A DNA stretch of 64,000 bases from Escherichia coli. GTDB lineage: Bacteria; Pseudomonadota; Gammaproteobacteria; Enterobacterales; Enterobacteriaceae. The notes under the pieces were generated by a model. It was not told the DNA's origin. It worked only from the letters and a program-made list of their open reading frames with translations, and did no database searches. The stretch lies in the NCBI RefSeq assembly GCF_003334815.1, contig NZ_QOWO01000008.1, one strand, 5' to 3'. Positions within the stretch are counted from its first letter, which is position 1. Each line of letters opens with the position of its first letter. Shown here piece after piece: positions 10,683 through 64,000 of the stretch. The translations under genes and the position numbers were made by a program.

Positions 10683-10790
10683 ACTGCCGGATGCGGCGTG
10701 AACGCCTTATCCGGCCTACAAAACCTTGCTAATTCAATATATTGCAGGGACTATGTAGGCCTGATAAGCATAGCGCATCAGGCAGCTTTA
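10683..10790. repeat. REP/BIME cluster
   Basis: ctgccggatgcggcgtgaacgccttatccggcctac and inverted copy gtaggcctgataagc...gcatcaggcag. Confidence 0.8.
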
Positions 10791-27241: not shown

Positions 27242-27286
27242 CAACGCTCCCCATCAGGCGGCAATGACCGCGTTAGTAAATACTCG

Positions 27287-28948
27287 TCAAAATGTTTCCC
27301 AGTTTGGATCTTGTTCAGCAATTCGCAGTCGTGGCTGAGCCGGTGGTTGCTCACTGGCAGGACGGGATGGTGTTTGCGGTTTATTGGTGAGTGGGCTGGC
27401 TGCCAGACGGAACGCGGAAACTGCTTGCGTTAAACGACTCGCCTGTTCTTCCAGCGCAGCGGCGGCGGCAGCTGATTCCTGCACCAGCGATGCGTTCTGT
27501 TGCGTGACGCGATCCATTTCCGAAACCGCCAATGCGACTTGATCGATGCCACGGCTCTGTTCATCCGATGCCGATGCAATCTCGCCCATAATGTCAGTCA
27601 CGCGAGTGACAGCATTGACGATATTGTTCATTGTTTCCCCGGCGCTTTCGACCAGCACCGAACCGGTATCAACGCGTGAGACGGAGTCTTCAATGAGGGC
27701 TTTGATCTCTTTTGCCGCCTGGGCGCTGCGACTGGCAAGATTACGCACTTCACCCGCCACCACGGCAAAACCACGGCCCTGTTCACCCGCACGCGCGGCT
27801 TCAACCGCGGCATTCAGCGCGAGGATATTAGTCTGGAAGGCAATACCGTCGATAACGCTGATAATGTCGGCAATTTTCTTCGAACTATCGGCGATCTCAT
27901 GCATCGTTTTCACTACGCCATCCACCACTTTGCCGCCGTGCTGGGCGGTGTCGGAGGCACTTTGCGCCAGTTGCGAGGCCTGGCGGGCGTTATCGGCGTT
28001 TTGCTTCACTGTCGCGGTGAGCTGCTCCATGCTGGCGGCAGTTTCTTCCAGCGCGGATGCCTGCTGTTCAGTACGGGAGGAAAGATCGGTGTTGCCCGCC
28101 GCAATTTCACGGGTACCGGCATAGATGGCATCTGAACCTTCGCGGACATGAGTGACGGTGTCAGTCAAAGAGCGTTGCATATGTGAAACGCTCTGCGCCA
28201 GGTCGCCCATTTCACTGCGCCCGTCAATGGTCAGGGTATTCGCCAGGTTACCACCGGCGATTTCGCGAATGTGAGCAATAATTTTTGCCAGCGGAGTAAG
28301 CAACATACGGCGAATGCCGTACCACGCCACCAGCAGAATCAATACCACCACCAGCGCGATAACCGCCAGTTGCCACTGGGCAAATCGGTAATCATCTGCG
28401 TTGTCAGTGACGATATCGCGATACAGTTTTTCACTGCTGAGGGCGTACTGAGCAAACGCTTCGCCCATTGCATTTTGCATTCCCTGGGTTGGCTGAGCGA
28501 AATAAGCTCCAGTATTGCCATAATCTAGATAATCAATCAGTTCAGTTAACGCTGTGTAATAGTTTTTATATTTTTCATCAATATTACGACTGGTAGCGAC
28601 CATTTCAGGTAACGGTGCCATGCTTTTGAATTTTTTATAATGCGTCGCTGCCTGCGCCAATGTTTTCCTGGCGCTATCGAGCAATTCAACTTTGGCGTTA
28701 CTTTGTTGATTGGAGGAATCCATCATCATCCGTACCGCTGAACGACTCAGGTTAATGCGCGTTTGCAGCATTAAATCCCAGGTTGACGTCAGCTCGCCCT
28801 GCTGTTCCCGTAATTGATTGGAAACCACAAAGCTCTTCTGGCTATGGTGAAGGGAAGAAAAAAACAGACTGCCGGAAATAAGCTGTAACAGTGCGAATAC
28901 CCCCAGCACCATTACCAACAGCGTGACTACGCGGATACGGTTAATCAT
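27287..28948 (-). CDS. tar: Methyl-accepting chemotaxis protein II (aspartate) Tar
   Basis: 553 aa from [22 protein letters not shown]; C-terminal NWETF pentapeptide. Confidence 0.93.
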
Positions 28949-34731: not shown

Positions 34732-35233
34732 CAAAACACTCAATTACTTAACATAAATGTATAAGTCATACTTTTGTTTTGGGTGTATTTCAATCTGTTA
34801 AAAAGTTTTTCGCTACGCTAGCAAGCAAAAATGAAACAGGAATAATCGAAATGGGATGTTGCGCACAGTCAAAATAACTCACCGTAAATAATCATCTGCT
34901 ATAAATAATCACTTTCATGCAATACCAGATAAGCTATTTTTAAACAGACACTTACCGCACAACAAACTAATTAAATACAAAGAAAGGCAACAATCAACTT
35001 AATGTTAATGAAATGTTTTACATATATTAACCACTTGTTTAATGCGGAGAATCAGTACACTATTTTCTTATAATTACATTTGAAATTATATGATCACCGG
35101 GAGTGATTGATTAATTGTCTTTACTAATAATCAGACTAATATTTACCTGTTTGACCGAGTTGGGATTGCGTCGTTTCTCCATTAGGAGTAAAGCTTTAAT
35201 GTCACCTGAAGTTCACAGAATAAGGAACAGGTT

Positions 35234-44196: not shown

Positions 44197-44694
44197 ATGC
44201 TGAAACCAGAAATGATTGAAAAACTTAATGAGCAGATGAACCTGGAACTGTACTCTTCACTGCTTTATCAGCAAATGAGCGCCTGGTGCAGCTATCATAC
44301 CTTCGAAGGTGCTGCCGCGTTCCTGCGCCGTCACGCCCAGGAAGAGATGACGCATATGCAGCGTCTGTTTGATTACCTGACTGATACCGGCAATTTACCG
44401 CGTATTAATACCGTTGAATCTCCGTTTGCTGAATATTCCTCACTTGATGAGTTATTCCAGGAAACCTATAAACACGAACAATTAATCACCCAGAAAATTA
44501 ACGAACTGGCTCATGCTGCAATGACCAATCAGGACTACCCAACATTTAATTTCCTGCAATGGTATGTTTCTGAGCAGCATGAAGAAGAGAAACTGTTCAA
44601 ATCGATTATTGATAAATTAAGCCTGGCAGGCAAAAGCGGCGAAGGTCTGTATTTTATCGACAAAGAACTCTCTACCCTCGACACACAAAACTAA
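44197..44694 (+). CDS. ftnA: Ferritin FtnA
   Basis: 165 aa from [21 protein letters not shown]. Confidence 0.95.
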
Positions 44695-44699
44695 TGCTC

Positions 44700-44730
44700 T
44701 CCGGCGGCAGGTTTACTGCCGCCGTTTCAA
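44700..44730. terminator. Putative bidirectional terminator between ftnA and yecH
   Basis: ggcggcaggtttactgccgcc hairpin between convergent genes. Confidence 0.45.
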
Positions 44731-44731
44731 A

Positions 44732-44971
44732 TCAGTGACGGCAAATCTTACTCTGATCGGTCGAAAAACCGTCTTTCGAAGGTATAAATTTGCCTTTTGC
44801 TGCCAGAAACGCTACCAGCTCTCCCGCTGTCATCCCTTCTGCCGAGCAGGTGTGAAAACGTGCCTGTTCACCAAAACGCGCTTTAATCGCAGCTTCCAGA
44901 CTGGCATGCGTATATTGCTCGCCTGATTCAATCATCATATTTAACACTTCATGACCGTGAATAGAGTCCAT
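44732..44971 (-). CDS. yecH: DUF2492 family protein YecH
   Basis: 79 aa ORF. Confidence 0.85.
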   Translation of the reverse strand: MDSIHGHEVLNMMIESGEQYTHASLEAAIKARFGEQARFHTCSAEGMTAGELVAFLAAKGKFIPSKDGFSTDQSKICRH

Positions 44972-45161
44972 CGTCCCTCCTCAAAAAAAGCCTAGCGTAG
45001 CGATTGCCGCTTATGAAGACTTTGCGCCAGCGCAGGACTGAATGCTTTTTATTGTACATTTATATTTACACCATATGTAACGTCGGTTTGACGAAGCAGC
45101 CGTTATGCCTTAACCTGCGCCGCAGATATCACTCATAAAGATCGTCAGGACAGAAGAAAGC

Positions 45162-46373
45162 GTGAAAAACAGAACCCTGGGAAGTGTTTTTATCGTGGCG
45201 GGAACCACAATTGGCGCAGGCATGCTGGCAATGCCGCTGGCTGCGGCCGGTGTTGGTTTTAGCGTTACGTTAATCTTGTTGATTGGGCTTTGGGCGTTGA
45301 TGTGCTACACGGCGCTATTACTGCTGGAGGTGTACCAGCATGTTCCGGCAGATACCGGTCTGGGCACGCTGGCAAAACGCTATCTGGGACGCTACGGTCA
45401 ATGGCTGACGGGCTTCAGTATGATGTTCTTAATGTATGCTCTGACTGCGGCATACATCAGCGGTGCCGGTGAATTGTTGGCCTCCAGCATCAGCGACTGG
45501 ACAGGTATTTCTATGTCGGCAACCGCTGGCGTGCTGTTGTTCACTTTTGTTGCCGGTGGCGTGGTTTGTGTCGGAACTTCACTGGTCGATTTATTTAACC
45601 GTTTTCTGTTCAGCGCCAAGATTATTTTTCTGGTGGTAATGCTGGTACTACTGCTGCCGCATATTCACAAAGTGAATCTTTTAACCCTGCCGTTGCAACA
45701 GGGGCTGGCTCTGTCTGCAATCCCGGTGATTTTTACGTCGTTTGGTTTTCACGGTAGCGTGCCGAGTATTGTCAGCTATATGGATGGCAACATTCGTAAG
45801 CTACGCTGGGTGTTTATAATCGGTAGTGCGATCCCCCTGGTGGCATATATTTTCTGGCAGGTGGCGACGCTTGGCAGCATTGATTCAACAACCTTTATGG
45901 GATTGCTGGCTAATCATGCTGGATTAAACGGGCTGTTACAGGCGTTACGCGAAATGGTGGCCTCTCCGCATGTTGAGCTGGCAGTGCATTTATTTGCTGA
46001 TTTAGCCCTCGCCACGTCATTTCTCGGCGTTGCGTTAGGCTTATTTGATTATCTGGCTGATTTATTTCAGCGTTCAAATACCGTTGGTGGACGGTTGCAA
46101 ACTGGTGCAATTACGTTTCTGCCGCCGTTGGCGTTTGCACTGTTTTATCCACGAGGATTTGTGATGGCGCTGGGTTACGCCGGTGTGGCGCTGGCGGTAC
46201 TGGCATTGATTATCCCTTCGCTGTTGACCTGGCAAAGCAGAAAGCACAATCCTCAGGCGGGTTACCGGGTCAAAGGTGGTCGTCCGGCGCTGGTGGTGGT
46301 GTTTCTCTGTGGTATTGCTGTGATTGGCGTGCAATTTTTGATTGCGGCAGGGTTGTTACCAGAAGTGGGGTGA
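45162..46373 (+). CDS. tyrP: Tyrosine-specific transport protein TyrP (GTG start)
   Basis: 403 aa polytopic HAAAP-family permease. Confidence 0.93.
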
Positions 46374-46394
46374 TCAGATAGCCTCAAATTCCTT

Positions 46395-46424
46395 ATTGGG
46401 TGCCAGAATTAACGCTGACACCCA
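46395..46424. terminator. Putative bidirectional terminator between tyrP and yecA
   Basis: ttgggtgccagaattaacgctgacacccaa hairpin between convergent genes. Confidence 0.45.
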
Positions 46425-46434
46425 ATTTGGCCTC

Positions 46435-47100
46435 TTAATGCAGGCAGCACTGCTTAAATTTCTTACCACTACCGCACGGGCAAGGATCGTTACGCCCCGG
46501 TTTCTCTTCTGCTTTGATCGGTTGCTGAACAGCTTTTTCCTGCGGATGCGCCATCCAGTACGCATGTAGATCAAGCGCCGCCAGTCGAATGGCATCTACG
46601 CTCTCTTCAAACGCTTCTGGCGACATCTTTTCTACCCGCTCGAAGTTTTCCTCAGTACCGTGCAGCGCAATCGCCTCCAGCGCTGGTTTTAACGAATCGG
46701 GCAACGTTGACCAGTCAGAAAGTGCCACGCCCCGCATATAGCCAAAGCACCACTCCTCAACAATCGTCAGCTCGCTGCCATCAACTTCTCGCAAGCCGAA
46801 TAACGGCTCAAACTGCTCCGGGAATTCGTTCAGACGCTCTGCGGTATCGGCCATATGTTGAAAAGCCAGATTCATAAAGCGCGTCATCTCTTTCTCTGAC
46901 GCCCAGCGCGGCACATAGTCAGCCCCACCCCACACGGCAACCAGCCACTGTTCCGGTTCAATCTCTTGCGGAGAACTCAACACCGCCGTCAATAAACCGT
47001 CCAGCTCCGCCACATCAAGGATGGCGTGGTCAGTGTTGTATTTGGTCAGAATATCGTCCAGCCATTCCAACTCACTTTCGTTTAACGGTCCCGTTTTCAT
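46435..47100 (-). CDS. yecA: UPF0149/SEC-C motif protein YecA
   Basis: 221 aa, C-terminal [13 protein letters not shown] metal-binding motif. Confidence 0.93.
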
Positions 47101-47295
47101 ACGCTTTTCCTTGTGGATCTCAACTCGCCAGCACCTATCTTACATGCCGGTCCGTATCAGAGATACTTTTTGAGTGGCTTTGCTGGTGATTAAAAATTAA
47201 GGAGGGTGTAACGACAAGTTGCAGGCACAAAAAAACCACCCGAAGGTGGTTTCACGACACTGCTTATTGCTTTGATTTTATTCTTATCTTTCCCA

Positions 47296-47382
47296 TGGTA
47301 CCCGGAGCGGGACTTGAACCCGCACAGCGCGAACGCCGAGGGATTTTAAATCCCTTGTGTCTACCGATTCCACCATCCGGGC
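47296..47382 (-). tRNA. leuZ: tRNA-Leu (anticodon UAA)
   Basis: 87 nt; reverse complement GCCCGGATGGTGGAATCGGTAGACACAAGGGATTTAAAATCCC...GGGTACCA. Confidence 0.93.
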
Positions 47383-47394
47383 TCGGGAAGAAAG

Positions 47395-47468
47395 TGGAGG
47401 CGCGTTCCGGAGTCGAACCGGACTAGACGGATTTGCAATCCGCTACATAACCGCTTTGTTAACGCGCC
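47395..47468 (-). tRNA. cysT: tRNA-Cys (anticodon GCA)
   Basis: 74 nt; reverse complement GGCGCGTTAACAAAGCGGTTATGTAGCGGATTGCAAATCCG...CCTCCA. Confidence 0.93.
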
Positions 47469-47522
47469 AAATTCTTCAGGCCTTTCAGCCAGACATCCGC
47501 TTGACGCCGATGTCTTTTAAAC

Positions 47523-47598
<76 letters not shown>

Positions 47599-47749
47599 AT
47601 TCATCAAGCAATCAGTTAATCACTTGATTTTATTATCGTCTGGCAATCAGTGCCGCCGTTCGATGCGTTGCATTCTACTTACCTGGCGCGATGAGTCAAC
47701 GATATTTTTCACCACTTTTGATCGTTTGCTGAAAATTACGCCGAAACGA

Positions 47750-48298
47750 TCACTGATCAAGCAAATCTGCACGCGCAGCGCTCAAATATTGCAACATTGA
47801 CCACAGAGTCAGTACCGCAGCCACAAAGAAAAGTGCAATACCGGCGTACTCAACCCAAATGTTCGGACGCCACAGCAGCCATGCCAACGCCACCATCTGG
47901 GCAGTGGTTTTCACTTTCCCAATCCAGGAGACGGCCACGCTACTGCGTTTACCCAACTCCGCCATCCATTCGCGTAGCGCAGAAATAATAATTTCACGGG
48001 CGATCATCGTTGCCGCCGGTAATGTCACCCACCAGCTGTGATAATGCTCGGTTACCAGCACCATGGCGATAGCCACGAGAACTTTATCTGCCACAGGGTC
48101 AAGGAAAGCACCAAACCGGGTACTCTGGTTCCAGCGGCGTGCCAGAAAACCATCGAACCAGTCAGTCACCGCCGCGACGCAGAAAATGAGCGCGGCGGCA
48201 AACGGCGACCAGGTGACAGGCAGATAAAAGACCAATACAAAGAATGGGATAAGGATGACACGGAACAGTGTAAGCAACGTAGGGATATTAAATTGCAT
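47750..48298 (-). CDS. pgsA: CDP-diacylglycerol--glycerol-3-phosphate 3-phosphatidyltransferase PgsA
   Basis: 182 aa, CDP-alcohol phosphatidyltransferase motif. Confidence 0.95.
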
Positions 48299-48354
48299 AA
48301 TGACGGGTAACTATCTGTTGTCAGTAAGATTACCCCTATGTTGCTACAGAGACA

Positions 48355-50187
48355 TCAATGTTTCAACGACCAGAAGATCTTTTCTGCCAGACCTTGCGAA
48401 ATACCCGGCACTTTTGCAATTTCCTCGACGCTGGCGTTACGTAAACCTTGCAAACCGCCCATATATTTCAACAACATTTGCCGACGTTTTGGCCCGACGC
48501 CTTCAATGGTTTCCAGGGAACTGGTATTTTTGACCTTCGCCCGTTTTTTACGGTGCCCGCCAATCGCGTGATCATGTGATTCATCGCGAATATGCTGGAT
48601 AACATGCAGCGCGGGTGAATCTGGCGGCAAACTAAATCCCTCACCTTCCGGCTCAAAGAACAGCGTTTCCAGTCCAGCCTTACGATCTGCTCCTTTGGCA
48701 ACGCCAAGTAGCAGCGGATGATTTTTATCCCATGAGACATCCAGTTCGGCGAAGACATTTTTCGCCTGCGCAAGCTGGCCTTTGCCGCCGTCGATAAGGA
48801 TCACATCCGGGATCTTACTGTCGTCAATGGCTTTACCATAACGCCGACGCAGCACCTGATTCATCGCCGCATAATCATCGCCCGGCGTGATGCCTGTAAT
48901 GTTATAGCGCCGATACTCCGCACGCAGCGGGCCGTTAGCATCAAACACCACACAGGAAGCGACGGTTTGTTCGCCCATGGTATGGCTGATGTCAAAGCAC
49001 TCCATCCGCTTCACTTCCGGCAATTTCAACACGCTGGCAAGCGCGGTCAGTCGCTGGTGAACGGTAGATTGCTGCGAAAGTTTGCTGGTTAAGGCCGTCG
49101 CCGCATTGGTGCGCGCGAGTTTCAGATAACGCGCCCTATCGCCGCGAGGTTTGGTTTGAACATTAATCTTGCGTCCCGCCAGTTCTGAAAGGGAATCGGC
49201 GAGCAGCGTTTTATCGCTAAGATTAAAATCGAGCAGGATCTCACCCGGTAAGGTGCGCATCTGGCTGCCTTGTAAATAGAACTGGCCTACGAAGGTTTCT
49301 ACCACCTCGCTCAGTTCCGTACCGCCAGGCACTTTCGGGAAATAGCTGCGGCTGCCGAGCACTTTGCCCTGACGAATGAACAATACGTGGACACAAGCCA
49401 TGCCCGCATCGAACGCCACACCAATAACGTCGAGGTCGTCGCCGGTATTGGAAACGAATTGTTTTTCGGTGACGCGTCGCACCGCCTGAATTTGGTCGCG
49501 AATACGTGCAGCTTCTTCAAACTCCAGATTCTGGCTGGCAGTTTCCATACGACTAATGAGTTGCGTAAGCACCTGATCATCTTTGCCAGACAAAAACAGG
49601 CGCACATACTCGACCTGCTGAGCGTATTCTTCTTCACTCACCAGTCCTTCAACGCACGGTCCCAGACAGCGCCCTATCTGGTATTGCAGACACGGACGCG
49701 AGCGATTGCGATAAACACTATTTTCGCACTGGCGAATGGGGAAAATCTTTTGCAGTAGCGCCAGTGTTTCACGTACGGCATAGCCATTCGGGAACGGGCC
49801 GAAATATTCACCTTTGGCATGCTTCGCACCACGATGCATCGCCAGACGCGGGTGGGTATCACCACTCAGGAAGATAAAAGGATATGATTTATCATCGCGT
49901 AGCAAAACGTTGTAACGCGGCTGATAGAGTTTGATGTAGTTGTGTTCCAGCAACAGCGCTTCGGTTTCTGTGTGAGTAACCGTTACATCAATTTGCTGGA
50001 TCTGGGCGACCAGCGCTTCGGTTTTGCGCGAAGCGAGGTTGCTACGGAAATAGCTGGAAAGCCGTTTTTTCAGGTCTTTCGCTTTGCCGACATAGATAAC
50101 CGTACCACCAGCATCGTACATGCGATAAACGCCTGGCTGGCTGGTTACGGTTTTTAAAAACGCTTTTGCGTCAAACTGATCACTCAC
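48355..50187 (-). CDS. uvrC: Excinuclease ABC subunit C
   Basis: 610 aa, GIY-YIG N-terminus ([24 protein letters not shown]). Confidence 0.97.
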
Positions 50188-50840
50188 TGACTTGATAATG
50201 TCTCCGCATTACACAGACCATGGCGAATTGCCAGGTGAGTCAGCTCAACATCGCCATGAATGTTTAGTTTACTGAACATACGATAGCGGTAGCTGTTCAC
50301 CGTTTTCGGACTGAGATTGAGCTGTTCTGAGATCTCATTGACCTTCTGGCCCTTGGTGATCATCAGCATAATCTGCAATTCACGTTCAGACAAACTGGCA
50401 AATGGGCTTTCTGTTTTTTCTGGTTCGATCTGGCTTAACGCCATTTGTTGAGCGATGTCAGAAGCAATGTAACGCTGCCCTGAATAGACAGAACGAATCG
50501 CACTCACGACTTCCTGCGGAGCCGCGCCTTTGCTGAGGTAGCCCGCAGCACCGGCCTGCATGACTTTCGCTGGTAAAGGGTTTTCTGTATGGACGGTAAG
50601 CATGATGATTTTGACATCAGCTGTGGAACGCGCGATTTTACGCGTCGCCTCAAGACCGCCAATGCCCGGCATACTCATGTCCATTAGCACCACGTCAACG
50701 GCATTTGTCCGGCACCACTTAACGGCGTCTTCACCGCACGATGCCTCACCGACGACTTTTATACCCTTTATATCTTCCAGAATGCGTCGTATCCCTGCGC
50801 GCACCAGTTCGTGGTCATCAACAAGTAGAACGTTGATCAA
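50184..50840 (-). CDS. uvrY: Response regulator UvrY (BarA partner, LuxR-type HTH)
   Basis: 218 aa; stop overlaps uvrC start. Confidence 0.97.
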
Positions 50841-51298
50841 AGGAATATCTCCAGAAATAGGGATAACGCTACTGATAGTTAGTCATTCGTATATTAGCGG
50901 TTTTTATTGCAACTTTGAAACGTTAAAAATGGTGGGTATTCGATTTTTCTCTCGTTTTTGTCAATTCGATTGTCCACAGTTATGGTCACGCCCGTCACCA
51001 ACGGCTTACCGGATCGTTTCACAGTAAGCCCTGCGACGAAATGTGACAAAAATTACCTTTATTCAGCAAAAATGAAAATCAGCCCGCTGAATATGTAACA
51101 TTAATTAACCCGAACAATACGGGCAAAAAACATTCATGATAAAAATATTTATTGGTCATTATATTAACGCATTTAATAGCACCGTTGACGATACGCTCAA
51201 AAAACAACCACTGCTATTTTTAGCAAAGCTTATGGTATACTCCGCCGCCTTAACATTTTTCACCGCAAATTTTCATTGCAACATGACGAGGAAAATAA

Positions 51299-51523
51299 AT
51301 GAGTACGCCTGATTTTTCTACTGCCGAGAATAATCAAGAACTGGCAAATGAAGTCTCCTGCCTGAAAGCGATGCTGACGCTGATGCTGCAGGCGATGGGA
51401 CAAGCTGACGCGGGCCGCGTGATGTTAAAGATGGAAAAACAGCTTGCGCTGATCGAAGACGAAACCCAGGCTGCAGTATTTTCCAAAACGGTTAAGCAAA
51501 TTAAACAAGCCTACCGTCAGTAA
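51299..51523 (+). CDS. yecF: DUF2594 family protein YecF
   Basis: 74 aa ORF followed by a strong terminator. Confidence 0.85.
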
Positions 51524-51528
51524 TATAA

Positions 51529-51563
51529 AACCGGCTGATAGCGTGCCTTTCAGCCGGTTTTTG
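51529..51563 (+). terminator. Rho-independent terminator after yecF
   Basis: aaccggctgatagcgtgcctttcagccggttttt. Confidence 0.8.
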
Positions 51564-51590
51564 CATCTGGCACGCAGGACAGAAAAGAGA

Positions 51591-52313
51591 TCAAATTAAG
51601 CCAGTAGCGGCCGCGTAACAGGCAACCTGGGTCTTATTCGGTGCATTGATTTTTTTCTGCATGTTTTTCTGATGGAAATTGACCGTATTCTCAGAGATTG
51701 ACAAAATCATCGCTATCTCTGCTGATGTCTTCCCTTCCGCCGTCCATTTCAAAATTTCTTTTTCGCGCTTGCTGAAATTCATCTCTGGCGTCATCACTAT
51801 TTCATCATTTAAACGCATCAGAGCCATCAGACTTTCGCGCACCAGTAACTGCATTTTTAATTGCAGTTCATCACTAAGAATGGGTATTTCGCGCGCGCTG
51901 CTACGGGAAAAGGACAAAAAGCCCAGCGCCCGGTTTGGCAGCATTAAATACTGAGTGACACCGCGGCGTAAACCATGTGCGCGCGCGGCTTCCCATAACG
52001 GCTGTGCTTCGCTGAATAAGTCATCATTCCACATTAAATGGCCCTGACTAAAGTTTTCAGGGTTCAGCACCGGATCAATTGCGAGAAAGTTTTTTGCCTG
52101 ATAATAACTAACCCACGCCTCAGGGTAATTGGTGTAGAAAGCCACTTTAGGTCGCGTGAATGGTACCGGGTGGCGAACACATAACGAATAGTAATCGTAC
52201 TCTAGCTGCTGAGCCTGAAGCTCTATTTCATGGTAGACCTCTTCTGCGGCCTCCATCCTCTGAAAACGCAACAGCATCGTGCGACGCCAGCTGAAAAAAT
52301 CCGTATCCTGCAT
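51591..52313 (-). CDS. sdiA: LuxR-family quorum-sensing regulator SdiA
   Basis: 240 aa from MQD.DFFSWRRTMLLRFQ, C-terminal HTH. Confidence 0.93.
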   Translation of the reverse strand: MQDTDFFSWRRTMLLRFQRMEAAEEVYHEIELQAQQLEYDYYSLCVRHPVPFTRPKVAFYTNYPEAWVSYYQAKNFLAIDPVLNPENFSQGHLMWNDDLFSEAQPLWEAARAHGLRRGVTQYLMLPNRALGFLSFSRSSAREIPILSDELQLKMQLLVRESLMALMRLNDEIVMTPEMNFSKREKEILKWTAEGKTSAEIAMILSISENTVNFHQKNMQKKINAPNKTQVACYAAATGLI

Positions 52314-52542
52314 AGTAAACCGCAACGCCCCTGAGAGTGAGTATCATTTATAATGATAATTCAAACTATCACATAAATAAGATTTATATATAATTTATAT
52401 TATTCAGGCAATGAATTACTTTTGCAAGCCATCGCATTCTCTTATGTTATTAATGAGTTATGCTGATTTGTTAAGCTGTTTTATCACGCTTGAAATGGCG
52501 TCCCGCCCCGACAGGTGAATCGTCGGGGCTGATTTTTTCTTA

Positions 52543-53295
52543 TTATTGCAGCAGAAACTTCTCGAGGAACTGGCGGGTGCGAGGCTGCTGGGGATCGGCA
52601 AATAACGCTTTTGCTGCCCCCTGCTCGACTATCCGCCCCTGGTCCATAAAAATCGCCCGGTCCGCAACATCCCGGGCAAAGCTCATTTCGTGCGTCACAA
52701 TCACCATCGTGCGCTTTTCCTGCGCCAGCTGACGGATGGTGTTCAGGACTTCGCCCACCAGCTCTGGATCCAGCGCCGACGTTGGCTCGTCAAACAAAAT
52801 CACCTCAGGACGCATTGCCAGCGCACGTGCAATCGCAACACGTTGCTGTTGACCGCCAGACAAACGACGTGGATAGCTGGTTTCTTTACCGGCCAGCCCA
52901 ACTTTCGCCAACAGCTCGCGAGCGCGCGCCGTGGCCTCTTCTTTCGGTTCGCCTTTGACGATCACCGGCCCTTCAATAATGTTTTCCAGCACCGTACGAT
53001 GCGGAAACAAATTAAAGTTCTGGAAGACAAACCCGACGTGCTGACGCAACTGGCGAATCAGCGATTTTTGCTGACTTAATGAACGTGCAGTATCAATAGT
53101 GATATCGCCAACGGTGATAGTTCCCGCTTCCGGTTGTTCCAGCAGATTTATGCTGCGTAGCAACGTGGTTTTGCCGGAACCACTCGGACCGATAATTGCC
53201 ACCACTTCGCCAGGCTTTACCTCAAGGTCGATACCGTGCAGCACCGTCTGACCGTGAAATTTTTTCACCAGGTTCTTAACTTCAATGGCACTCAT
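52543..53295 (-). CDS. tcyN: L-cystine ABC transporter ATP-binding protein TcyN
   Basis: 250 aa ABC ATPase (GPSGSGKTT, LSGGQQQR). Confidence 0.95.
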   Translation of the reverse strand: MSAIEVKNLVKKFHGQTVLHGIDLEVKPGEVVAIIGPSGSGKTTLLRSINLLEQPEAGTITVGDITIDTARSLSQQKSLIRQLRQHVGFVFQNFNLFPHRTVLENIIEGPVIVKGEPKEEATARARELLAKVGLAGKETSYPRRLSGGQQQRVAIARALAMRPEVILFDEPTSALDPELVGEVLNTIRQLAQEKRTMVIVTHEMSFARDVADRAIFMDQGRIVEQGAAKALFADPQQPRTRQFLEKFLLQ

Positions 53296-53960
53296 TTTGG
53301 TTCTCTCTCCTGGCGATTAAGTTGATTCTCAAAATGGTTCTGCAACGTCGATAATACTGTCGCCATGATCCAGTAGATGAGCGAAGCCGCCAGGTACATG
53401 GTGAACACCTCCAGCGTGCGCGAGGTAATCAACTGCGCCTGACGGAACAGCTCCGGCACCTGAATTGTCGCGGCCAGCGACGTATCTTTTACCAGGCTGA
53501 TAAAGCTGTTCGACAGCGGCGGCAACGCCACCCGCGCCGCCTGTGGCAAAATCGCGCGACGCATAGTCTGCCATGGCGTCATACCAATACTGGCAGCTGC
53601 TTCCCACTGACCTTTATCAATAGAAGAAATGGCGGCGCGCAGCGTTTCGGCAGCATAGGCGGCAGTGTTGAGCGACAGACCAATCATTGCTGACGGAATG
53701 GGATCTAATTCGATACCAAACTGCGGCAGGCCGTAATAGATCATAAACAGTTGTGCGATGAGCGGTGTACCACGAAAAATAGAGATATAAAAACGCGCCA
53801 GCCAGCGCACGGGCCAGATTGGCGACAGGCGCATCAGCGCGAGAATAAACCCGAGCAGTAAGCCAAAAAACATGCCGCCGATACTGAGTTGCAGCGTATA
53901 CCCAGCCCCTTTCAGCAGGAACGGCAAGGAATCAATAACCAGTTGTATACTTTCTTGCAT
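53292..53960 (-). CDS. tcyL: L-cystine ABC transporter permease TcyL
   Basis: 222 aa permease, overlaps tcyN start. Confidence 0.95.
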   Translation of the reverse strand: MQESIQLVIDSLPFLLKGAGYTLQLSIGGMFFGLLLGFILALMRLSPIWPVRWLARFYISIFRGTPLIAQLFMIYYGLPQFGIELDPIPSAMIGLSLNTAAYAAETLRAAISSIDKGQWEAAASIGMTPWQTMRRAILPQAARVALPPLSNSFISLVKDTSLAATIQVPELFRQAQLITSRTLEVFTMYLAASLIYWIMATVLSTLQNHFENQLNRQEREPK

Positions 53961-53974
53961 GAGCGTTCCCGGAG

Positions 53975-55866
<1,892 letters not shown>

Positions 55867-55953
55867 ATTCACCCCGAATGTTGTTATGTCTGTTTGCAGT
55901 GTAGAGCCATTGTTTGTAAACACAAAAACAACTCCGCTACATCTTATTCTTAT

Positions 55954-56505
55954 TTAATATATATCAGAAGAAGGCAGGCTGGAGGATTTCTGCACAAGTC
56001 CGGTACAGGTTTGGCGCTGATAGTGTTGATACTTCCGTAACGCGATGCGGTAATTGTTGGTGCTGGTGGTGGGCAGCCACGGGGCGAGGATTTCATCAAG
56101 GAAACCGTCCTGCAGCTGTTCGAGGGAAATATTTTGCTCGTGTAGATGATTCCCCAAACGGCGCAAACGAACGACATATTCACGCACCGTACCTGGGCTC
56201 ATTTCAGTTTGCTCAAAAAGAAATTGCTTAAAGCCGATAATATCGAAAAAATCACTCTGCGTTTTGCAGTGTAAATCACCGCAAAATCGGCACAATGCCG
56301 CCCATGATTGTTGTTCCACTTGCCAGCCATTTTCATCAAGCAGCGTGTCCAGGCGGGAAATCTCGATTTTATTCACTATTTTGCCGTCGCGAACTAAGGT
56401 AATGCGATCGAGTAATTTACGGCAATGCGCACAATGGGTCTGGCTGTGTTTAAAGTCTTTAAGATAGCGGCTTAATGGCCGTCTTTTCAGGTGCTGCACC
56501 ATCAT
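55954..56505 (-). CDS. fliZ: Regulator FliZ
   Basis: 183 aa from MMVQHLKRRPLSRYLKDF. Confidence 0.93.
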   Translation of the reverse strand: MMVQHLKRRPLSRYLKDFKHSQTHCAHCRKLLDRITLVRDGKIVNKIEISRLDTLLDENGWQVEQQSWAALCRFCGDLHCKTQSDFFDIIGFKQFLFEQTEMSPGTVREYVVRLRRLGNHLHEQNISLEQLQDGFLDEILAPWLPTTSTNNYRIALRKYQHYQRQTCTGLVQKSSSLPSSDIY

Positions 56506-56550
56506 TAAGAACTCCTGGTAGTCAAAGTTAAAGTGCGGCATTTACTGACG

Positions 56551-57270
56551 TTATAACTTACCCAGTTTAGTGCGTAACCGTTTAATGGCCTGGCTGTGTA
56601 ACTGACTGACCCGCGATTCCCCGACCTCCAGCACCGCGCCAATCTCTTTGAGATTCAGCTCTTCCTGGTAATAGAGGGTTAATACCAGTTTTTCGCGCTC
56701 CGGCAGCGTTTCGATAGCTTCCATCACCCGCTGGCGCAGATTACTGTCCAGCAGTTGTTGTAGCGGGTTTTCTCGCTGATGATCATCAGTAACCAGTTCG
56801 ATGCTATCGCCGTGCTCTTCGCGCCACTCATCGTAGGAGAAGAGCTGGCTGTTATTGGTGTCGAGCAACATTTGGCGATAATCGGCAATATCGATCCCTA
56901 AACGTTCCGCTACCTCAGTTTCCGTGGCGTTGCGGCCAAGTTCCTGCTCCAGTTGCCCTATTGCCTGTGCCACTTCACGCGCGTTGCGTCGCACGCTGCG
57001 CGGCACCCAGTCACGGCTGCGAAGTTCATCCAGCATAGCGCCACGGATACGCTGCACTGCGTAAGTTGTAAATGCCGTTCCTTGTAGGGCGTCATAGCGT
57101 TCGACGGCATTAAGTAACCCAATGCCGCCCGCCTGTAGCAGATCGTCAAGTTCCACGCTCGCGGGCAGTCGAACCTGCAGGCGCAATGCTTCGTGACGCA
57201 CCAGCGGGACATAACGCTGCCACAGCGAGTGTTTATCCATTACACCTTCAGCGGTATAGAGTGAATTCAC
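56551..57270 (-). CDS. fliA: Flagellar sigma factor FliA (sigma28)
   Basis: 239 aa sigma70-family regions 2-4. Confidence 0.97.
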   Translation of the reverse strand: MNSLYTAEGVMDKHSLWQRYVPLVRHEALRLQVRLPASVELDDLLQAGGIGLLNAVERYDALQGTAFTTYAVQRIRGAMLDELRSRDWVPRSVRRNAREVAQAIGQLEQELGRNATETEVAERLGIDIADYRQMLLDTNNSQLFSYDEWREEHGDSIELVTDDHQRENPLQQLLDSNLRQRVMEAIETLPEREKLVLTLYYQEELNLKEIGAVLEVGESRVSQLHSQAIKRLRTKLGKL

Positions 57271-57295
57271 GATAAACAGCCCTGCGTTATATGAG

Positions 57296-57322
57296 TTATC
57301 GGCATGATTATCCGTTTCTGCA
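57296..57322 (-). promoter_or_regulatory. fliA promoter region (sigma28-type -10 GCCGATAA; -35 poorly matched)
   Basis: Minus-strand GCCGATAA at 57296-57303, about 25 bp upstream of fliA start. Confidence 0.4.
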
Positions 57323-57391
57323 GGGTTTTTAATCGGACGATTAGTGGGTGAAATGAGGGGTTATTTGGGGGTTACCGGTAAATTGCGGACA

Positions 57392-57415
57392 GAAAAAACC
57401 CCGCCGGTGGCGGGG
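57392..57415 (-). terminator. Rho-independent terminator at the end of the fliC 3' UTR
   Basis: ccccgccaccggcgggg hairpin followed by T6 on minus strand. Confidence 0.7.
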
Positions 57416-57424
57416 AAGCACGTT

Positions 57425-57555
<131 letters not shown>

Positions 57556-57589
57556 TTGCCGTCAGTCTCAGTTAATCAGGTTAGGACGA

Positions 57590-59302
57590 TTAACCCTGCA
57601 GCAGAGACAGAACCTGCTGCGGTACCTGGTTAGCTTTTGCCAGCACGGAGTTACCTGCCTGCTGAATAATCTGCGCTTTCGACATGTTGGACACTTCGGT
57701 CGCATAGTCGGCGTCCTGAATACGGGACTGCGCTTCGGACAGGTTGGTAGTGGTGTTGTTCAGGTTGGTGACTGCGGAATCCAGACGGTTCTGCACGGCA
57801 CCCAGGGAAGAACGGAATTTGTCTACGGATGCGATAGCATCGTCCAGCGCTTTCAGCGGATCCGTGGTCGCTTCAGATTTACCTGTAGCTTCAGTGGTCA
57901 GAGAGCCGTCAGCCGCTTTATACAGAGCCGCGCCGTCATCATCCAGAATATTGCCGTTAGCAAATTCGTGATAAGTTTCTGTGACAGTCTTGTTGGCCGC
58001 AGTCGTCAGTTCACCCTCAGCACCAATATTTACGGTCGCTCCACCTGTAGTAGCAGTTACTGCACCATCAGCGGCAACGTCATAAGACTGTGCGCCGTTA
58101 GCTACGGTATAAGCCTGACCGGTTAACGCAGTGTTCATATCTTCGGCGGATACCGTCGCGCCCTTAATATCCACATTGTTGCTAACCTGGGTGAAGTCAA
58201 CGGTCATGCCGCTGCCGAAGGTAATCTTCGCATCAACTGCATCATGACCATTCGCACCGTTGAAAATACCGTCCAACGTTGCCGCGGCTGGGCCGCCGGC
58301 CTGGTTTTTCGTCAGGTTACCGTCAGCACCAATGTATAAAGCATCGCCATTAGTATCCGTCAGGGTACCATCGCTGGCAATTTTAACTTCCTGAGCGCTA
58401 CCACCGATGGAGATCTGAGCCGTGTTATCGCCGTTTGCTGCATAGGCTTTCAGAACATCAGCAACTTTAGTTGAGCCCGCAGTACCATCACCATTAGTAA
58501 GTGCGGTTGCGTCAAATGAATAAGACTTGCTGGTTGCGTTGTAGGTATATGCAGTAGAAGCCGCTACGCCTAACCCATTGTTTGTGCCAGCATAACCGCT
58601 AATAGTGCTGCCGCCACTAACGCTAGCCAGCACATCGGTAGCTGTTGCTGCATTAAAGGTAGTAACAGTAGATTTAGTCCAGGTGCTATTGCCACTGACA
58701 ACTGCACTTTGGGAGAAGCCCGCAGCGGTCAGATCTGCTTCAGTGGCTTTTGCATTATCAACAGCGCCTTTACCGTTGACGTTGAAGCTGGTCAGCTTCA
58801 GTGTAGAAGAGTCGATTTTTTTCAGGTCAATCGTGATGGTTTCACCATCATTTGCGCCCACCTGAATTTTCATTGAACCGTCTTTGGACAACACATTCAC
58901 GCCATTGAACTGGGTCTGACCAGATACGCGGTCAATTTCATCAAGACGAGATTTGATTTCGTCCTGGATGGAGTCCAGGTCAGAATCGGAGTTAGTACCG
59001 GTAGTGGCCTGAACCGTCAGTTCACGGATACGCTGTAAGTTGTTGTTGATTTCGGACAGCGCGCCTTCGGTGGTCTGCGCAACGGAAATACCGTCGTTGG
59101 CGTTACGTGCAGCCTGAGTCAGGCCTTTAATGTTAGAAGTAAAACGGTTAGCAATCGCCTGACCCGCGGCGTCATCCTTCGCGCTGTTAATACGCAAGCC
59201 AGAAGACAGACGCTCGATAGAACTCGACAGCGCAGACTGGTTCTTGTTGATATTATTTTGAGTGATCAGCGAGAGGCTGTTGGTATTAATGACTTGTGCC
59301 AT
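57590..59302 (-). CDS. fliC: Flagellin FliC (H-antigen), 570 aa allele with a non-K-12 central domain
   Basis: Conserved N-terminus MAQVINTNSLSLITQNNINKNQSALSSSIERLSSGLRINSAKDDAAGQAIANRF and C-terminus ...QVPQQVLSLLQG; central region differs from the 498 aa K-12 H48 flagellin. Confidence 0.95.
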   Translation of the reverse strand: MAQVINTNSLSLITQNNINKNQSALSSSIERLSSGLRINSAKDDAAGQAIANRFTSNIKGLTQAARNANDGISVAQTTEGALSEINNNLQRIRELTVQATTGTNSDSDLDSIQDEIKSRLDEIDRVSGQTQFNGVNVLSKDGSMKIQVGANDGETITIDLKKIDSSTLKLTSFNVNGKGAVDNAKATEADLTAAGFSQSAVVSGNSTWTKSTVTTFNAATATDVLASVSGGSTISGYAGTNNGLGVAASTAYTYNATSKSYSFDATALTNGDGTAGSTKVADVLKAYAANGDNTAQISIGGSAQEVKIASDGTLTDTNGDALYIGADGNLTKNQAGGPAAATLDGIFNGANGHDAVDAKITFGSGMTVDFTQVSNNVDIKGATVSAEDMNTALTGQAYTVANGAQSYDVAADGAVTATTGGATVNIGAEGELTTAANKTVTETYHEFANGNILDDDGAALYKAADGSLTTEATGKSEATTDPLKALDDAIASVDKFRSSLGAVQNRLDSAVTNLNNTTTNLSEAQSRIQDADYATEVSNMSKAQIIQQAGNSVLAKANQVPQQVLSLLQG

Positions 59303-59378
59303 GATTCGTTATCCTATATTGCAAGTCGTTGATTACGTATTGGGTTTCCACCCGTCGGCTCAATCGCCGTCAACCCTG

Positions 59379-59405
59379 TTATCGTCTGTCGTAAAACAAC
59401 CTTTA
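59379..59405 (-). promoter_or_regulatory. sigma28 class 3 promoter of fliC
   Basis: Minus-strand TAAAGGTT-N11-GACGATAA. Confidence 0.7.
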
Positions 59406-59497
59406 GAATTTTTTTCACAAACAGCCATTTTTTGTTAGTCGCCGAAATACTCTTTTCTCTGCCCCTTATTCCCGCTATTAAAAAAAACAATTAAACG

Positions 59498-59524
59498 TAA
59501 ACTTTGCGCAATTCAGGCCGATAA
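59498..59524 (+). promoter_or_regulatory. sigma28 promoter of the fliDST operon
   Basis: TAAACTTT-N11-GCCGATAA on plus strand, about 45 bp upstream of fliD. Confidence 0.75.
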
Positions 59525-59567
59525 CCCCGGTATTCGTTTTACGTGTCGAAAGATAAAAGGAAATCGC

Positions 59568-60974
59568 ATGGCAAGTATTTCATCGCTGGGAGTCGGGTCA
59601 GGCCTGGATTTAAGTTCAATCCTTGATAGCCTCACCGCCGCGCAAAAAGCGACGCTAACCCCTATTTCAAATCAGCAATCGTCGTTTACCGCTAAACTTA
59701 GCGCCTACGGTACGCTGAAAAGCGCGTTGACGACTTTCCAGACCGCCAATACTGCATTGTCTAAAGCCGATCTTTTTTCCGCCACCAGCACTACCAGCAG
59801 CACCACCGCGTTCAGTGCCACCACCGCGGGTAACGCCATCGCCGGGAAATACACCATCAGCGTCACCCATCTGGCGCAGGCGCAAACCCTGACCACGCGC
59901 ACCACCAGAGATGATACGAAAACGGCGATCGCCACCAGCGACAGTAAACTCACCATTCAACAAGGCGGCGACAAAGATCCGATTACCATTGATATCAGCG
60001 CGGCTAACTCGTCGTTAAGCGGGATCCGTGATGCCATCAACAACGCAAAAGCGGGCGTAAGTGCGAGCATCATTAACGTGGGTAACGGTGAATATCGTCT
60101 GTCAGTCACATCAAATGACACCGGCCTTGACAATGCGATGACACTCTCGGTCAGCGGTGATGATGCGCTACAAAGTTTTATGGGCTATGACGCCAGTGCC
60201 AGCAGCAACGGCATGGAAGTCTCGGTCGCCGCCCAGAATGCGCAGCTGACGGTCAACAACGTCGCCATTGAGAACAGCAGCAACACCATCAGCGACGCGC
60301 TGGAAAACATCACCCTGAACCTGAACGATGTCACCACGGGCAACCAGACGCTGACCATCACTCAGGACACCTCCAAAGCGCAAACGGCGATTAAAGACTG
60401 GGTGAATGCCTATAACTCGCTAATAGATACCTTCAGCAGCCTGACCAAATACACCGCCGTAGATGCGGGAGCTGATAGCCAAAGCTCTAGCAATGGCGCA
60501 CTGCTCGGCGACTCCACGCTGCGGACGATTCAGACGCAGTTGAAGTCGATGCTGAGTAATACCGTCAGTTCTTCCAGCTATAAAACGTTGGCGCAGATTG
60601 GTATCACGACCGATCCCAGCGATGGCAAACTGGAACTGGATGCCGACAAACTCACCGCTGCACTGAAAAAAGATGCCAGCGGCGTAGGTGCATTGATTGT
60701 TGGCGATGGTAAAAAAACCGGCATCACAACCACCATCGGCAGCAACCTGACCAGTTGGCTTTCGACAACGGGCATTATTAAAGCCGCTACCGATGGCGTT
60801 AGTAAGACTCTGAATAAATTAACTAAAGACTACAACGCCGCCAGCGATCGCATTGATGCGCAGGTCGCGCGCTACAAAGAACAATTTACCCAACTGGACG
60901 TTTTAATGACCTCGTTAAACAGCACCAGCAGCTACTTAACGCAGCAGTTCGAAAACAACAGTAATTCCAAGTAA
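59568..60974 (+). CDS. fliD: Flagellar filament cap protein FliD
   Basis: 468 aa, MASISSLGVGSGLDLSSILDSL. Confidence 0.95.
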   Translation: MASISSLGVGSGLDLSSILDSLTAAQKATLTPISNQQSSFTAKLSAYGTLKSALTTFQTANTALSKADLFSATSTTSSTTAFSATTAGNAIAGKYTISVTHLAQAQTLTTRTTRDDTKTAIATSDSKLTIQQGGDKDPITIDISAANSSLSGIRDAINNAKAGVSASIINVGNGEYRLSVTSNDTGLDNAMTLSVSGDDALQSFMGYDASASSNGMEVSVAAQNAQLTVNNVAIENSSNTISDALENITLNLNDVTTGNQTLTITQDTSKAQTAIKDWVNAYNSLIDTFSSLTKYTAVDAGADSQSSSNGALLGDSTLRTIQTQLKSMLSNTVSSSSYKTLAQIGITTDPSDGKLELDADKLTAALKKDASGVGALIVGDGKKTGITTTIGSNLTSWLSTTGIIKAATDGVSKTLNKLTKDYNAASDRIDAQVARYKEQFTQLDVLMTSLNSTSSYLTQQFENNSNSK

Positions 60975-60998
60975 TCAATATTCATCGGGAGACAGGTC

Positions 60999-61409
60999 AT
61001 GTACGCGGCAAAAGGCACCCAGGCCTATGCACAAATTGGCGTCGAAAGCGCCGTAATGAGCGCCAGCCAGCAGCAGCTGGTCACCATGCTATTTGATGGA
61101 GTGCTGAGCGCACTGGTTAGAGCGCGCCTGTTTATGCAGGACAACAATCAGCAAGGCAAAGGCGTCTCTTTGTCAAAAGCGATCAACATCATTGAGAACG
61201 GACTGCGGGTGAGTCTTGATGAAGATAGCAAAGACGAATTAACCCAAAACTTGATTGCTCTTTATAGCTATATGGTCAGGCGTTTGCTGCAAGCCAATTT
61301 ACGCAACGATGTCTCCGCAGTCGAAGAAGTGGAAGCATTAATGCGCAATATTGCCGATGCCTGGAAAGAGTCGTTACTCTCCCCTTCTTTGATTCAGGAC
61401 CCAGTCTGA
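60999..61409 (+). CDS. fliS: Flagellin-specific chaperone FliS
   Basis: 136 aa. Confidence 0.95.
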
Positions 61410-61774
61410 TGAACCATGCACCGCATTTGTATTTCGCCTGGCAACAACTCGTCGAAAAAAGCCAGCTCATGTTACGCCTGGCAACGGAAGAACAATGGGA
61501 CGAACTCATCGCCAGCGAAATGGCGTATGTGAATGCGGTGCAGGAGATAGCACACCTGACTGAAGAGGTTGCCCCGTCCACCACGATGCAGGAGCAGCTC
61601 CGCCCGATGCTGCGCCTGATTCTCGACAACGAAAGCAAGGTAAAGCAGTTATTACAGATTCGTATGGATGAACTGGCGAAACTGGTCGGTCAGTCATCGG
61701 TGCAAAAATCGGTGTTAAGTGCCTATGGCGATCAGGGCGGCTTTGTGCTGGCTCCGCAAGATAACTTCTCGTGA
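61409..61774 (+). CDS. fliT: Flagellar chaperone/anti-FlhDC factor FliT
   Basis: 121 aa, start overlaps fliS stop (TGATG). Confidence 0.95.
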
Positions 61775-61851
61775 ATCTTAACGAGCTAATGGTTCGCGAA
61801 TAATCCGATTACGGCTACGCTTCTAATGTTCCCCTTGAATGGAGTCGAAGA

Positions 61852-63339
61852 ATGCGTAATCCCACGCTGTTACAATGTTTTCACTGGTATTACCCGGAAG
61901 GCGGTAAGCTCTGGCCTGAACTGGCCGAGCGCGCCGACGGTTTTAATGATATTGGTATCAATATGGTCTGGTTGCCGCCCGCCTATAAAGGCGCATCGGG
62001 CGGGTATTCGGTCGGCTACGACTCCTATGATTTATTTGATTTAGGCGAGTTTGATCAGAAAGGCAGCATCCCTACTAAATATGGCGATAAAGTACAATTG
62101 CTGGCCGCCATTGACGCCCTGAAACGTAATGACATTGCGGTGCTGTTGGACGTGGTAGTCAACCACAAAATGGGCGCGGATGAAAAAGAAGCTATTCGCG
62201 TGCAGCGTGTAAATGCTGACGACCGTACGCAAATTGATGAAGAAATCATTGAGTGCGAAGGCTGGACGCGTTACACCTTCCCCGCCCGTGCCGGGCAATA
62301 CTCACAGTTTATCTGGGATTTCAAATGTTTTAGCGGTATCGACCATATCGAAAACCCTGATGAAGATGGCATATTTAAAATTGTTAACGACTACACCGGC
62401 GAAGGCTGGAACGATCAGGTTGATGATGAATTAGGTAATTTCGATTATCTGATGGGCGAGAATATCGATTTTCGCAATCATGCCGTGACGGAAGAGATTA
62501 AATACTGGGCGCGCTGGGTGATGGAACAAACGCAATGCGACGGTTTTCGTCTTGATGCGGTCAAACATATACCGGCATGGTTTTATAAAGAGTGGATCGA
62601 ACACGTACAAGAAGTTGCACCAAAGCCGCTGTTTATTGTGGCGGAGTACTGGTCGCATGAAGTCGATAAACTGCAAACGTATATTGATCAGGTGGAAGGC
62701 AAAACCATGCTGTTCGATGCGCCGCTGCAGATGAAATTCCATGAAGCATCGCGCATGGGGCGCGACTACGACATGACGCAGATTTTCACGGGTACATTAG
62801 TGGAAGCCGATCCTTTCCACGCCGTGACGCTCGTTGCCAATCACGACACCCAACCGTTGCAAGCCCTCGAAGCGCCGGTCGAACCGTGGTTTAAACCGCT
62901 GGCGTATGCCTTAATTTTGTTGCGGGAAAATGGCGTTCCTTCGGTATTCTATCCGGACCTCTACGGTGCGCATTACGAAGATGTCGGCGGTGACGGGCAA
63001 ACCTATCCGATAGATATGCCAATAATCGAACAGCTTGATGAGTTAATTCTCGCCCGTCAGCGTTTCGCCCACGGTGTACAGACATTATTTTTCGACCATC
63101 CGAACTGCATTGCCTTTAGCCGCAGTGGCACTGACGAATATCCCGGCTGCGTGGTGGTCATGTCGAACGGGGATGATGGCGAAAAAACCATTAATCTGGG
63201 AGAGAATTACGGCAATAAAACCTGGCGTGATTTTCTGGGGAACCGGCAAGAGAGCGTAGTAACCGACGAAAACGGTGAAGCGACCTTCTTTTGCAACGGC
63301 GGCAGCGTCAGCGTGTGGGTTATCGAAGAGGTGATTTAA
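61852..63339 (+). CDS. amyA: Cytoplasmic alpha-amylase AmyA
   Basis: 495 aa GH13, [21 protein letters not shown]. Confidence 0.95.
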
Positions 63340-63345
63340 ATTCAT

Positions 63346-63366
63346 CCCCGGCGGCAAGCCGGGGAG
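63346..63366. terminator. Putative bidirectional terminator between amyA and yedD
   Basis: ccccggcggcaagccgggg hairpin between convergent genes. Confidence 0.55.
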
Positions 63367-63372
63367 ATTTCA

Positions 63373-63789
63373 TTACGGCAGTGGCGTCGGTAACGGCGCT
63401 TTATCCAGCGCGGCGGCACACTCTGCCGTCGGGCGATCCACACGCTCCATCGTCATACCATCGTACTCAATGGTGTTACCGTCACGCTCAACCTCGTATA
63501 GCTCACGTTTTACGGTAACGTTAGTGAGATCATCAGACATCAATGTCAACTTACCCGGCACGGCAATCACCCGCTGCCACTGACGGCAATCAAGAGTATC
63601 GCCCTCTTTAGTGACAATCAGGCTGCCTATCGCTTCCGGGCTGACCAGCGCACGTTGCGGCCCTTTGGTCTGCCAGTAGCCCGCCAGCCAGTCCGGCGCG
63701 GGGGTTTTCACGACATTGTTATAGTTTTCGACTTCGGCACAGCCCGCCAGCAACATGAGCGCGCCTGCAATTGCGAGTTTTTTCATCAT
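63373..63789 (-). CDS. yedD: Lipoprotein YedD
   Basis: 138 aa ORF with lipobox LAGC. Confidence 0.9.
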   Translation of the reverse strand: MMKKLAIAGALMLLAGCAEVENYNNVVKTPAPDWLAGYWQTKGPQRALVSPEAIGSLIVTKEGDTLDCRQWQRVIAVPGKLTLMSDDLTNVTVKRELYEVERDGNTIEYDGMTMERVDRPTAECAAALDKAPLPTPLP

Positions 63790-63972
63790 TCGTCCTGCAT
63801 GAGAAGAAAAGAAGATTGTGGCATTAAAGCCCTGATGTCGCCAGCCTTTACAGGTTCAGAGAGAAATTTGATCTAACTATTATTTTTGTGAATTATTACC
63901 CCGAAAATAAATTTGCATGATGTATGATTCGCGACTCTTGTTTCAAACCTTCTGAGTTCAGAGGCTACATTC

Positions 63973-64000
63973 ATGTCATGGCAGCAATTCAAACACGCCT
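63973..64000 (+). CDS. yedE: Start of YedE (putative selenium/thiosulfate transporter); truncated at window end
   Basis: ATG followed by SWQQFKHA, matching the YedE N-terminus. Confidence 0.6.

Follow-up and report, generated by a model that had tools for sequence, protein, structure and literature searches.

The flagellin gene of a 64,000-nucleotide stretch of Escherichia coli DNA (contig NZ_QOWO01000008.1 of assembly GCF_003334815.1; hereafter the window) is almost certainly the chromosomal fliC, in its H32 allelic form, of a strain closely related to K-12, as judged from sequence comparisons. H32 fliC is already known and occurs unchanged in many public genomes, and the allele brings no new biology. 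It is a clean textbook case of conserved, core-forming ends joined to a replaceable surface cassette. The gene allows H32 typing of the source strain, perhaps as O26:H32 by proxy of its close relative FDN-24, and is of use in epidemiology and as a serotype label for the window.

The fliC locus and its transcription signals

An earlier note on this DNA had described a FliC of 570 residues at 57590-59302, with which both the open reading frame list and a full-length family match agree. The NCBIfam model NF005953, "FliC/FljB family flagellin", scores 729 bits (curated cutoff, 619), and the match extends over residues 1-570 of the window FliC and positions 1-548 of the 548-position profile. The stop codon occupies 57590-57592. 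Pfam Flagellin_N (PF00669) is found at residues 5-140 (E = 1.4e-46) and Flagellin_C (PF00700) at residues 483-568 (E = 5e-32), while the enterobacterial FliC middle domain (FliC, PF12445) is located at residues 347-473, corresponding to 57884-58264 of the window. The coordinates of the features are collected in Table 1.

Table 1. Features of the fliC region in the window.
Feature	Coordinates	Strand	Basis or remark
Interval within which K-12-identical sequence gives way to ~2% divergent sequence (left junction)	44452..51033	.	Clustered differences start at 51033, uvrY-yecU intergenic
fliA (sigma-28), intact, 239 aa, downstream of fliC	56551..57270	-	ORF list; K-12 and FDN-24 annotation
fliC 3'UTR, counterpart of the K-12 fliX sRNA region, with REP-type elements and intrinsic terminator	57393..57589	-	
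fliC CDS, H32 allele (probable)	57590..59302	-	ORF list, ATG start, 570 aa
Conserved C-terminal part, residues 479-570 (D1/D0 helices)	57593..57868	-	K-12 identity, Pfam
Variable central region, residues 176-478 (surface-exposed outer domains)	57869..58777	-	BLASTP/blastn break against K-12
Conserved N-terminal part, residues 1-175 (D0/D1 helices and start of the beta-hairpin)	58778..59302	-	K-12 identity, Pfam, AF2
Putative sigma-28 (FliA)-type promoter, TAAAGGTT-N11-GACGATAA	59379..59405	-	Read from sequence, upstream of fliC
fliD (filament cap), intact, 468 aa, divergent from fliC	59568..60974	+	ORF list; K-12, 1303 and FDN-24 annotation
fliS	60999-61409		ORF list; 3' of fliD
fliT	61409-61774		ORF list; 3' of fliS

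The order fliZ-fliA-fliC / fliD-fliS-fliT is that of K-12, and the open reading frames of fliA, fliZ, fliD, fliS and fliT around fliC are all intact. Further left of fliA lie fliZ, tcyJ and dcyD, and amyA and yedD are located further right of fliT. The mechanically called open reading frames of dcyD (53975-55057, 360 aa), tcyJ (55066-55923, 285 aa) and fliZ (55954-56541, 195 aa) exceed their annotated K-12 counterparts (328, 266 and 183 aa, respectively) in length; these are not real extensions, since the ORF finder takes the first in-frame start codon.

The sigma-28 class-3 flagellar promoter has the consensus TAAAGTTT-N11-GCCGATAA. The element upstream of fliC in the window, TAAAGGTT-N11-GACGATAA, differs from it by one mismatch in each half, and it is predicted to function as the fliC promoter. 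A terminator scan reveals a GC-rich hairpin stem (57415-57399) followed by a T-run about 190 nt past the fliC stop codon, so placed that transcription would run from the FliA-dependent class-3 promoter to this intrinsic terminator. In K-12 the corresponding region is annotated as fliX; the 3'UTR matches it at ~95% identity and retains the terminator stem. Two Rfam families are matched in the 3'UTR, ES036 at 57484-57525(+) with 38.1 bits (gathering score 37.6) and naRNA4 at 57428-57478(-) below threshold; both matches arise because the fliC 3'UTR contains REP-type elements. A second copy of the ~100-nt REP-type element at 57428-57525 is present at 10685-10784, between cmoB and torZ, and the copies cross-match the K-12 copies at 86%.

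We infer expression of fliC, motility and serological reactivity from these sequence features. The gene might nevertheless not encode the expressed H antigen: it could be silent, or another flagellin locus could take precedence from a part of the genome outside the 64 kb of the window. Some E. coli do possess alternative flagellin islets with fliC repressors, such as flkA/flkB and flmA/fljA (PMC5422975). Against this stand an intact fliC open reading frame, its putative promoter and intact fliA, fliZ, fliD, fliS and fliT, and the listed complete genomes with the allele show one flagellin match each by megablast, a search that a very divergent second flagellin could escape. We regard a silent or overridden fliC as very unlikely.

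Comparison with the K-12 flagellin

Flagellin subunits assemble beneath the FliD cap through their conserved ends, which form the filament core, and expose an antigenic middle part at the surface. In the window FliC, residues 1-175 are identical to FliC of K-12 MG1655 (498 aa) at 161 of 175 positions and residues 479-570 at all 92, in keeping with the canonical D0/D1 ends recognised earlier. For the centre, residues 176-478, BLASTP against K-12 FliC returns no alignment, and blastn finds the window unalignable to K-12 over 57869-58820, with the alignment breaking at 57868/57869 and 58820/58821. Near-identity to K-12 H48 flagellin, which would have spoken against a non-K-12, serotype-determining central domain, was looked for and is absent, and the reading as such a domain is thus supported. 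The limits first given for it (residues ~190-480, ~57860-58730) are about right, as the BLASTP and blastn breaks against K-12 fall nearby; more exactly, the region comprises residues 176-478, or 57869-58777.

The window gene therefore resembles that of the H48 flagellin of K-12 (FliC b1923, PDB 8cxm) in its locus, its neighbours and its conserved D0/D1 ends. This is in contrast to the central domain, which is unrelated at the BLASTP level, and to the length of the protein, the window FliC being 72 residues longer. At the nucleotide level, the conserved 5' end of the gene differs from K-12 at 39 of 480 positions (8%) and the conserved 3' end at 12 of 279 (4%), all 12 being synonymous; both ends diverge from K-12 more than the flanks do (~2%).

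The central region was also described in the earlier note as rich in T/S/G/A/N repeats. No repeats were detected in the fliC centre by Tandem Repeats Finder at a permissive score, self-BLASTP of the centre gave the trivial self-match but no internal repeat, and a k-mer check of the central domain found no peptide of 5 or more residues that recurs. What stands of that description is the bias in composition: T, S, G, A and N make up 61% of the centre as compared with 45% of the ends and 59% of the K-12 centre. The fliC centre is thus compositionally biased and non-repetitive, as flagellin outer domains generally are.

Assignment of the H type

The H32 call was made by proxy, from strains that share the allele and whose serotypes have been published or labelled, for the most part after typing in silico. 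The window fliC is identical at the nucleotide level to fliC of strain FDN-24, whose protein is RefSeq WP_001507509.1. FliC of E. coli 1303 has the same RefSeq accession, and the 1303 gene differs from that of the window by 3 nt, all synonymous. The serotype of 1303 is published as O70:H32 (PMC4384141), and SerotypeFinder typing likewise gave H32 for this strain (PMC5422975). The flagellin of the O70:H32 strain (Q9AL29) is thus identical to the window protein, and its gene occupies the same position between fliA and fliD. A second labelled strain, entered in RefSeq as "Escherichia coli O10:H32 strain NMBU-W12E19", matches the window at 99.9% identity in the central region and at 99.7% over 20 kb.

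A search of complete genomes with the central region separated the matches into discrete groups: 67 genomes at ≥99%, 155 at ~93% (the H30 group) and 75 at 60-80%; among the complete genomes so searched, no allele falls between 95% and 99%. The assignment to H32 rests on the two independently labelled H32 strains together with this clear gap to the nearest other type.

That nearest type is H30, the sister of H32, to which the window allele might instead belong. In the list of Hu and Reeves (PMC7018530), the 53 E. coli H antigens include only four related pairs, of which H30/H32 is one, and the two flagellins are indeed alike: the H30 protein of STEC409 (WP_032083558.1), a strain of the ~93% group published as O100:H30 (PMC8705337), also has 570 residues, is colinear with the window FliC without gaps, shares 96% of its residues and has the same domain layout. 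The STEC409 gene nevertheless differs from the window fliC at 102 nt. These produce 74 synonymous codon changes and 20 amino acid substitutions, spread from residue 106 to residue 478 (D106T, S199G, A238T, A275G, G276A, S277T, E305D, T317V, A326S, A339D, H353N, D354A, N375K, N376K, N390D, Y407F, D412G, E429D, A436T and A478V). Strains 1303 and NMBU-W12E19 belong with the window allele to the ≥99% group, whereas STEC409 falls in the ~93% group, on the other side of a gap that no complete genome fills. An H30 identity is, on these grounds, extremely improbable. On their sequences, H30 and H32 appear as diverged alleles and not as recent point mutants. A serological cross-reaction between them is plausible, since only 20 of 570 residues differ.

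We also note a third fliC allele group, ~64% identical in nucleotide sequence over the full H32 central region, of which the pig strain ZH142 is an example (flagellin of 561 aa, NZ_CM125651.1 1885882-1887567); the 60-80% band holds 75 genomes.

Distribution of the allele

The exact nucleotide allele is present in 6 complete genomes, including FDN-24, from sources that comprise chicken, seawater, human, calf and wastewater. Of 5426 complete E. coli genomes, 67 have alleles at least 99% identical to it. The exact protein, UniProt Q9AL29, falls in a 90% cluster of 464 members and is recorded on at least 1000 contigs. None of the names in the exact-sequence cluster gives an H type; they are generic ("FliC/FljB family flagellin", Q9AL29). 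When the central domain was searched against a database of 5.8 billion proteins, low-complexity words saturated the index, and none of the 9 matches returned bore a serotype name.

The homology break relative to K-12 within the gene and the greater divergence of its conserved ends (8% at the 5' and 4% at the 3' end, flanks ~2%) might be taken to mean that recombination inside fliC has recently given this strain a novel or hybrid H type. Such an origin is hardly credible for a protein that matches an old UniProt entry with a 464-member cluster and at least 1000 contigs, for a nucleotide allele shared by 6 complete genomes of differing host and country (and at ≥99% by 67), and for a locus whose flanks are also shared at ≥99.7% over 20 kb by about 34 genomes among the matches listed.

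Predicted structure and the outer domains

An AlphaFold2 monomer model of the window FliC, built from 49 diverse homologues, is a confident one (mean pLDDT 87.3). The model reveals long terminal helices at both ends, of which the N-terminal ones span residues 8-100 and 106-129, and a beta-rich middle. Searched with Foldseek against solved structures, the model best matches 7sn4 (EHEC O157:H7), 9n59 (Azotobacter vinelandii), 7sn7 (EPEC O127:H6) and 7sqd (Achromobacter), each with a probability of 1.00. At the sequence level, the 548-aa PDB flagellin 7sqj aligns to residues 1-570 of the window FliC in one stretch; the same sequence recurs in the "EPEC H6" entries 8cvi and 8cye.

The H7, Azotobacter, H6 and Achromobacter flagellins all have large multi-domain outer regions, as does the model of the window FliC, and the H6 sequence (EPEC O127:H6, 7sn7) aligns with it end to end (E about 1e-170). 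There are also differences from H6 and H7: the overall identity is only 54-58% and comes mostly from the conserved ends, and the global TM-scores are 0.4-0.5, because the domain orientations differ. The 7sqj alignment and the Foldseek matches point to a large multi-domain outer region homologous to those of H6 and H7. This suggests, from the single-stretch alignment and the modelled fold, that H32 shares the architecture of the long flagellins, among them H6 and H7, and stands apart from the H48 group.

The product of the window fliC would accordingly serve as the flagellar filament subunit, in which the D0/D1 helices at both ends build the filament core. Export is expected through the flagellar type III system, with FliS as chaperone and FliD as cap, while residues 176-478 are predicted to form the beta-rich outer domains that lie at the filament surface and would carry H32 specificity. 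The outer region of the EHEC O157:H7 flagellin consists of the domains D2, D3 and D4 (PMC8931119). In the H7, H6 and Achromobacter filaments, dimers or tetramers of the outer domains make up an outer-domain sheath, which changes waveform and tumbling (Kreutzberger et al. 2022, PMC8931119).

Boundary of the divergent segment

Over 1-51032 the window differs from MG1655 by only 11 SNPs, the last at 44451, and by the absence of IS1H. From 51033 to 64000, differences from K-12 are dense, with about 2% divergence on both sides of fliC. The divergent segment opens with a cluster of 13 differences at 51033-51193 (uvrY-yecU and yecU), in which two compensating 3-nt indels are found at about 51183 and 51193. 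The proposal that fliA and fliD be examined for a breakpoint is thus answered in part: a sharp breakpoint of K-12 identity does exist, at about 51033, but it lies in the uvrY-yecU spacer, ~6.5 kb left of fliC, and not in fliA or fliD.

FDN-24 was taken as a proxy for the sequence beyond the window, because it differs from the window by only 1 nt in 14,110. In this proxy genome, divergence from K-12 of about 1-8% runs at least 197 kb rightward, and the right end of the divergent segment was not reached within these 197 kb. The stretch includes the fliE-R operons, the asn-tRNA region, cob, sbcB, his, the O-antigen cluster, the colanic-acid genes and gat. Between 2411000 and 2610000 of FDN-24, dacD and sbcB flank a P22-like prophage, and islands are present at asnT.

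A divergent segment of at least 197 kb in the proxy is too long for a small exchange around fliC, and the junction at 51033 is best read from these alignments as one edge of the large-scale mosaicism that related E. coli genomes usually show. Within the block fliC does stand out, by its non-homologous centre and by ends that are more divergent than the flanks. The H-type difference thus lies inside a very large mosaic segment, which calls for caution against reading each fliC difference as local gene conversion. As a guide to which lineage, that of K-12 or that of the window, is the recombinant, the genomes sharing each right flank at ≥99% were counted; 170 have the window type and 372 the K-12 type, the latter number being apparently inflated by laboratory K-12-type strains (ER1709, CJ236 and a "laboratory developed" strain are among the matches listed).

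The wzx and wzy genes in the O-antigen cluster of FDN-24 are named "O26 family" by PGAP, and FDN-24 is for this reason probably O26:H32. The source strain of the window probably belongs to the ST10 complex, as its relatedness to K-12 suggests. If the divergent block entered as a single replacement, both the O and the H antigens would have changed in one event. That one replacement switched both antigens in a K-12-like ST10 background and, separately, that H32 filaments bear an outer-domain sheath like those of H6 and H7, form a tentative proposal that we consider rather unlikely.

Other observations concern the flanks and more distant parts of the window. The right flank, and fliD above all, is highly polymorphic in E. 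coli: 978 genomes match a fliD-yedD query at 80-90% identity, and several of the genomes listed by megablast align only downstream of fliD. The MG1655 IS1H upstream of flhDC (K-12 1978503-1979270) is absent at 34752-34759, which represents the empty target site, since the K-12 alignments abut there with an 8-nt overlap. The paralogous chemoreceptor genes tar and tap (25782-28108) cross-align at 74% over about 630 nt.
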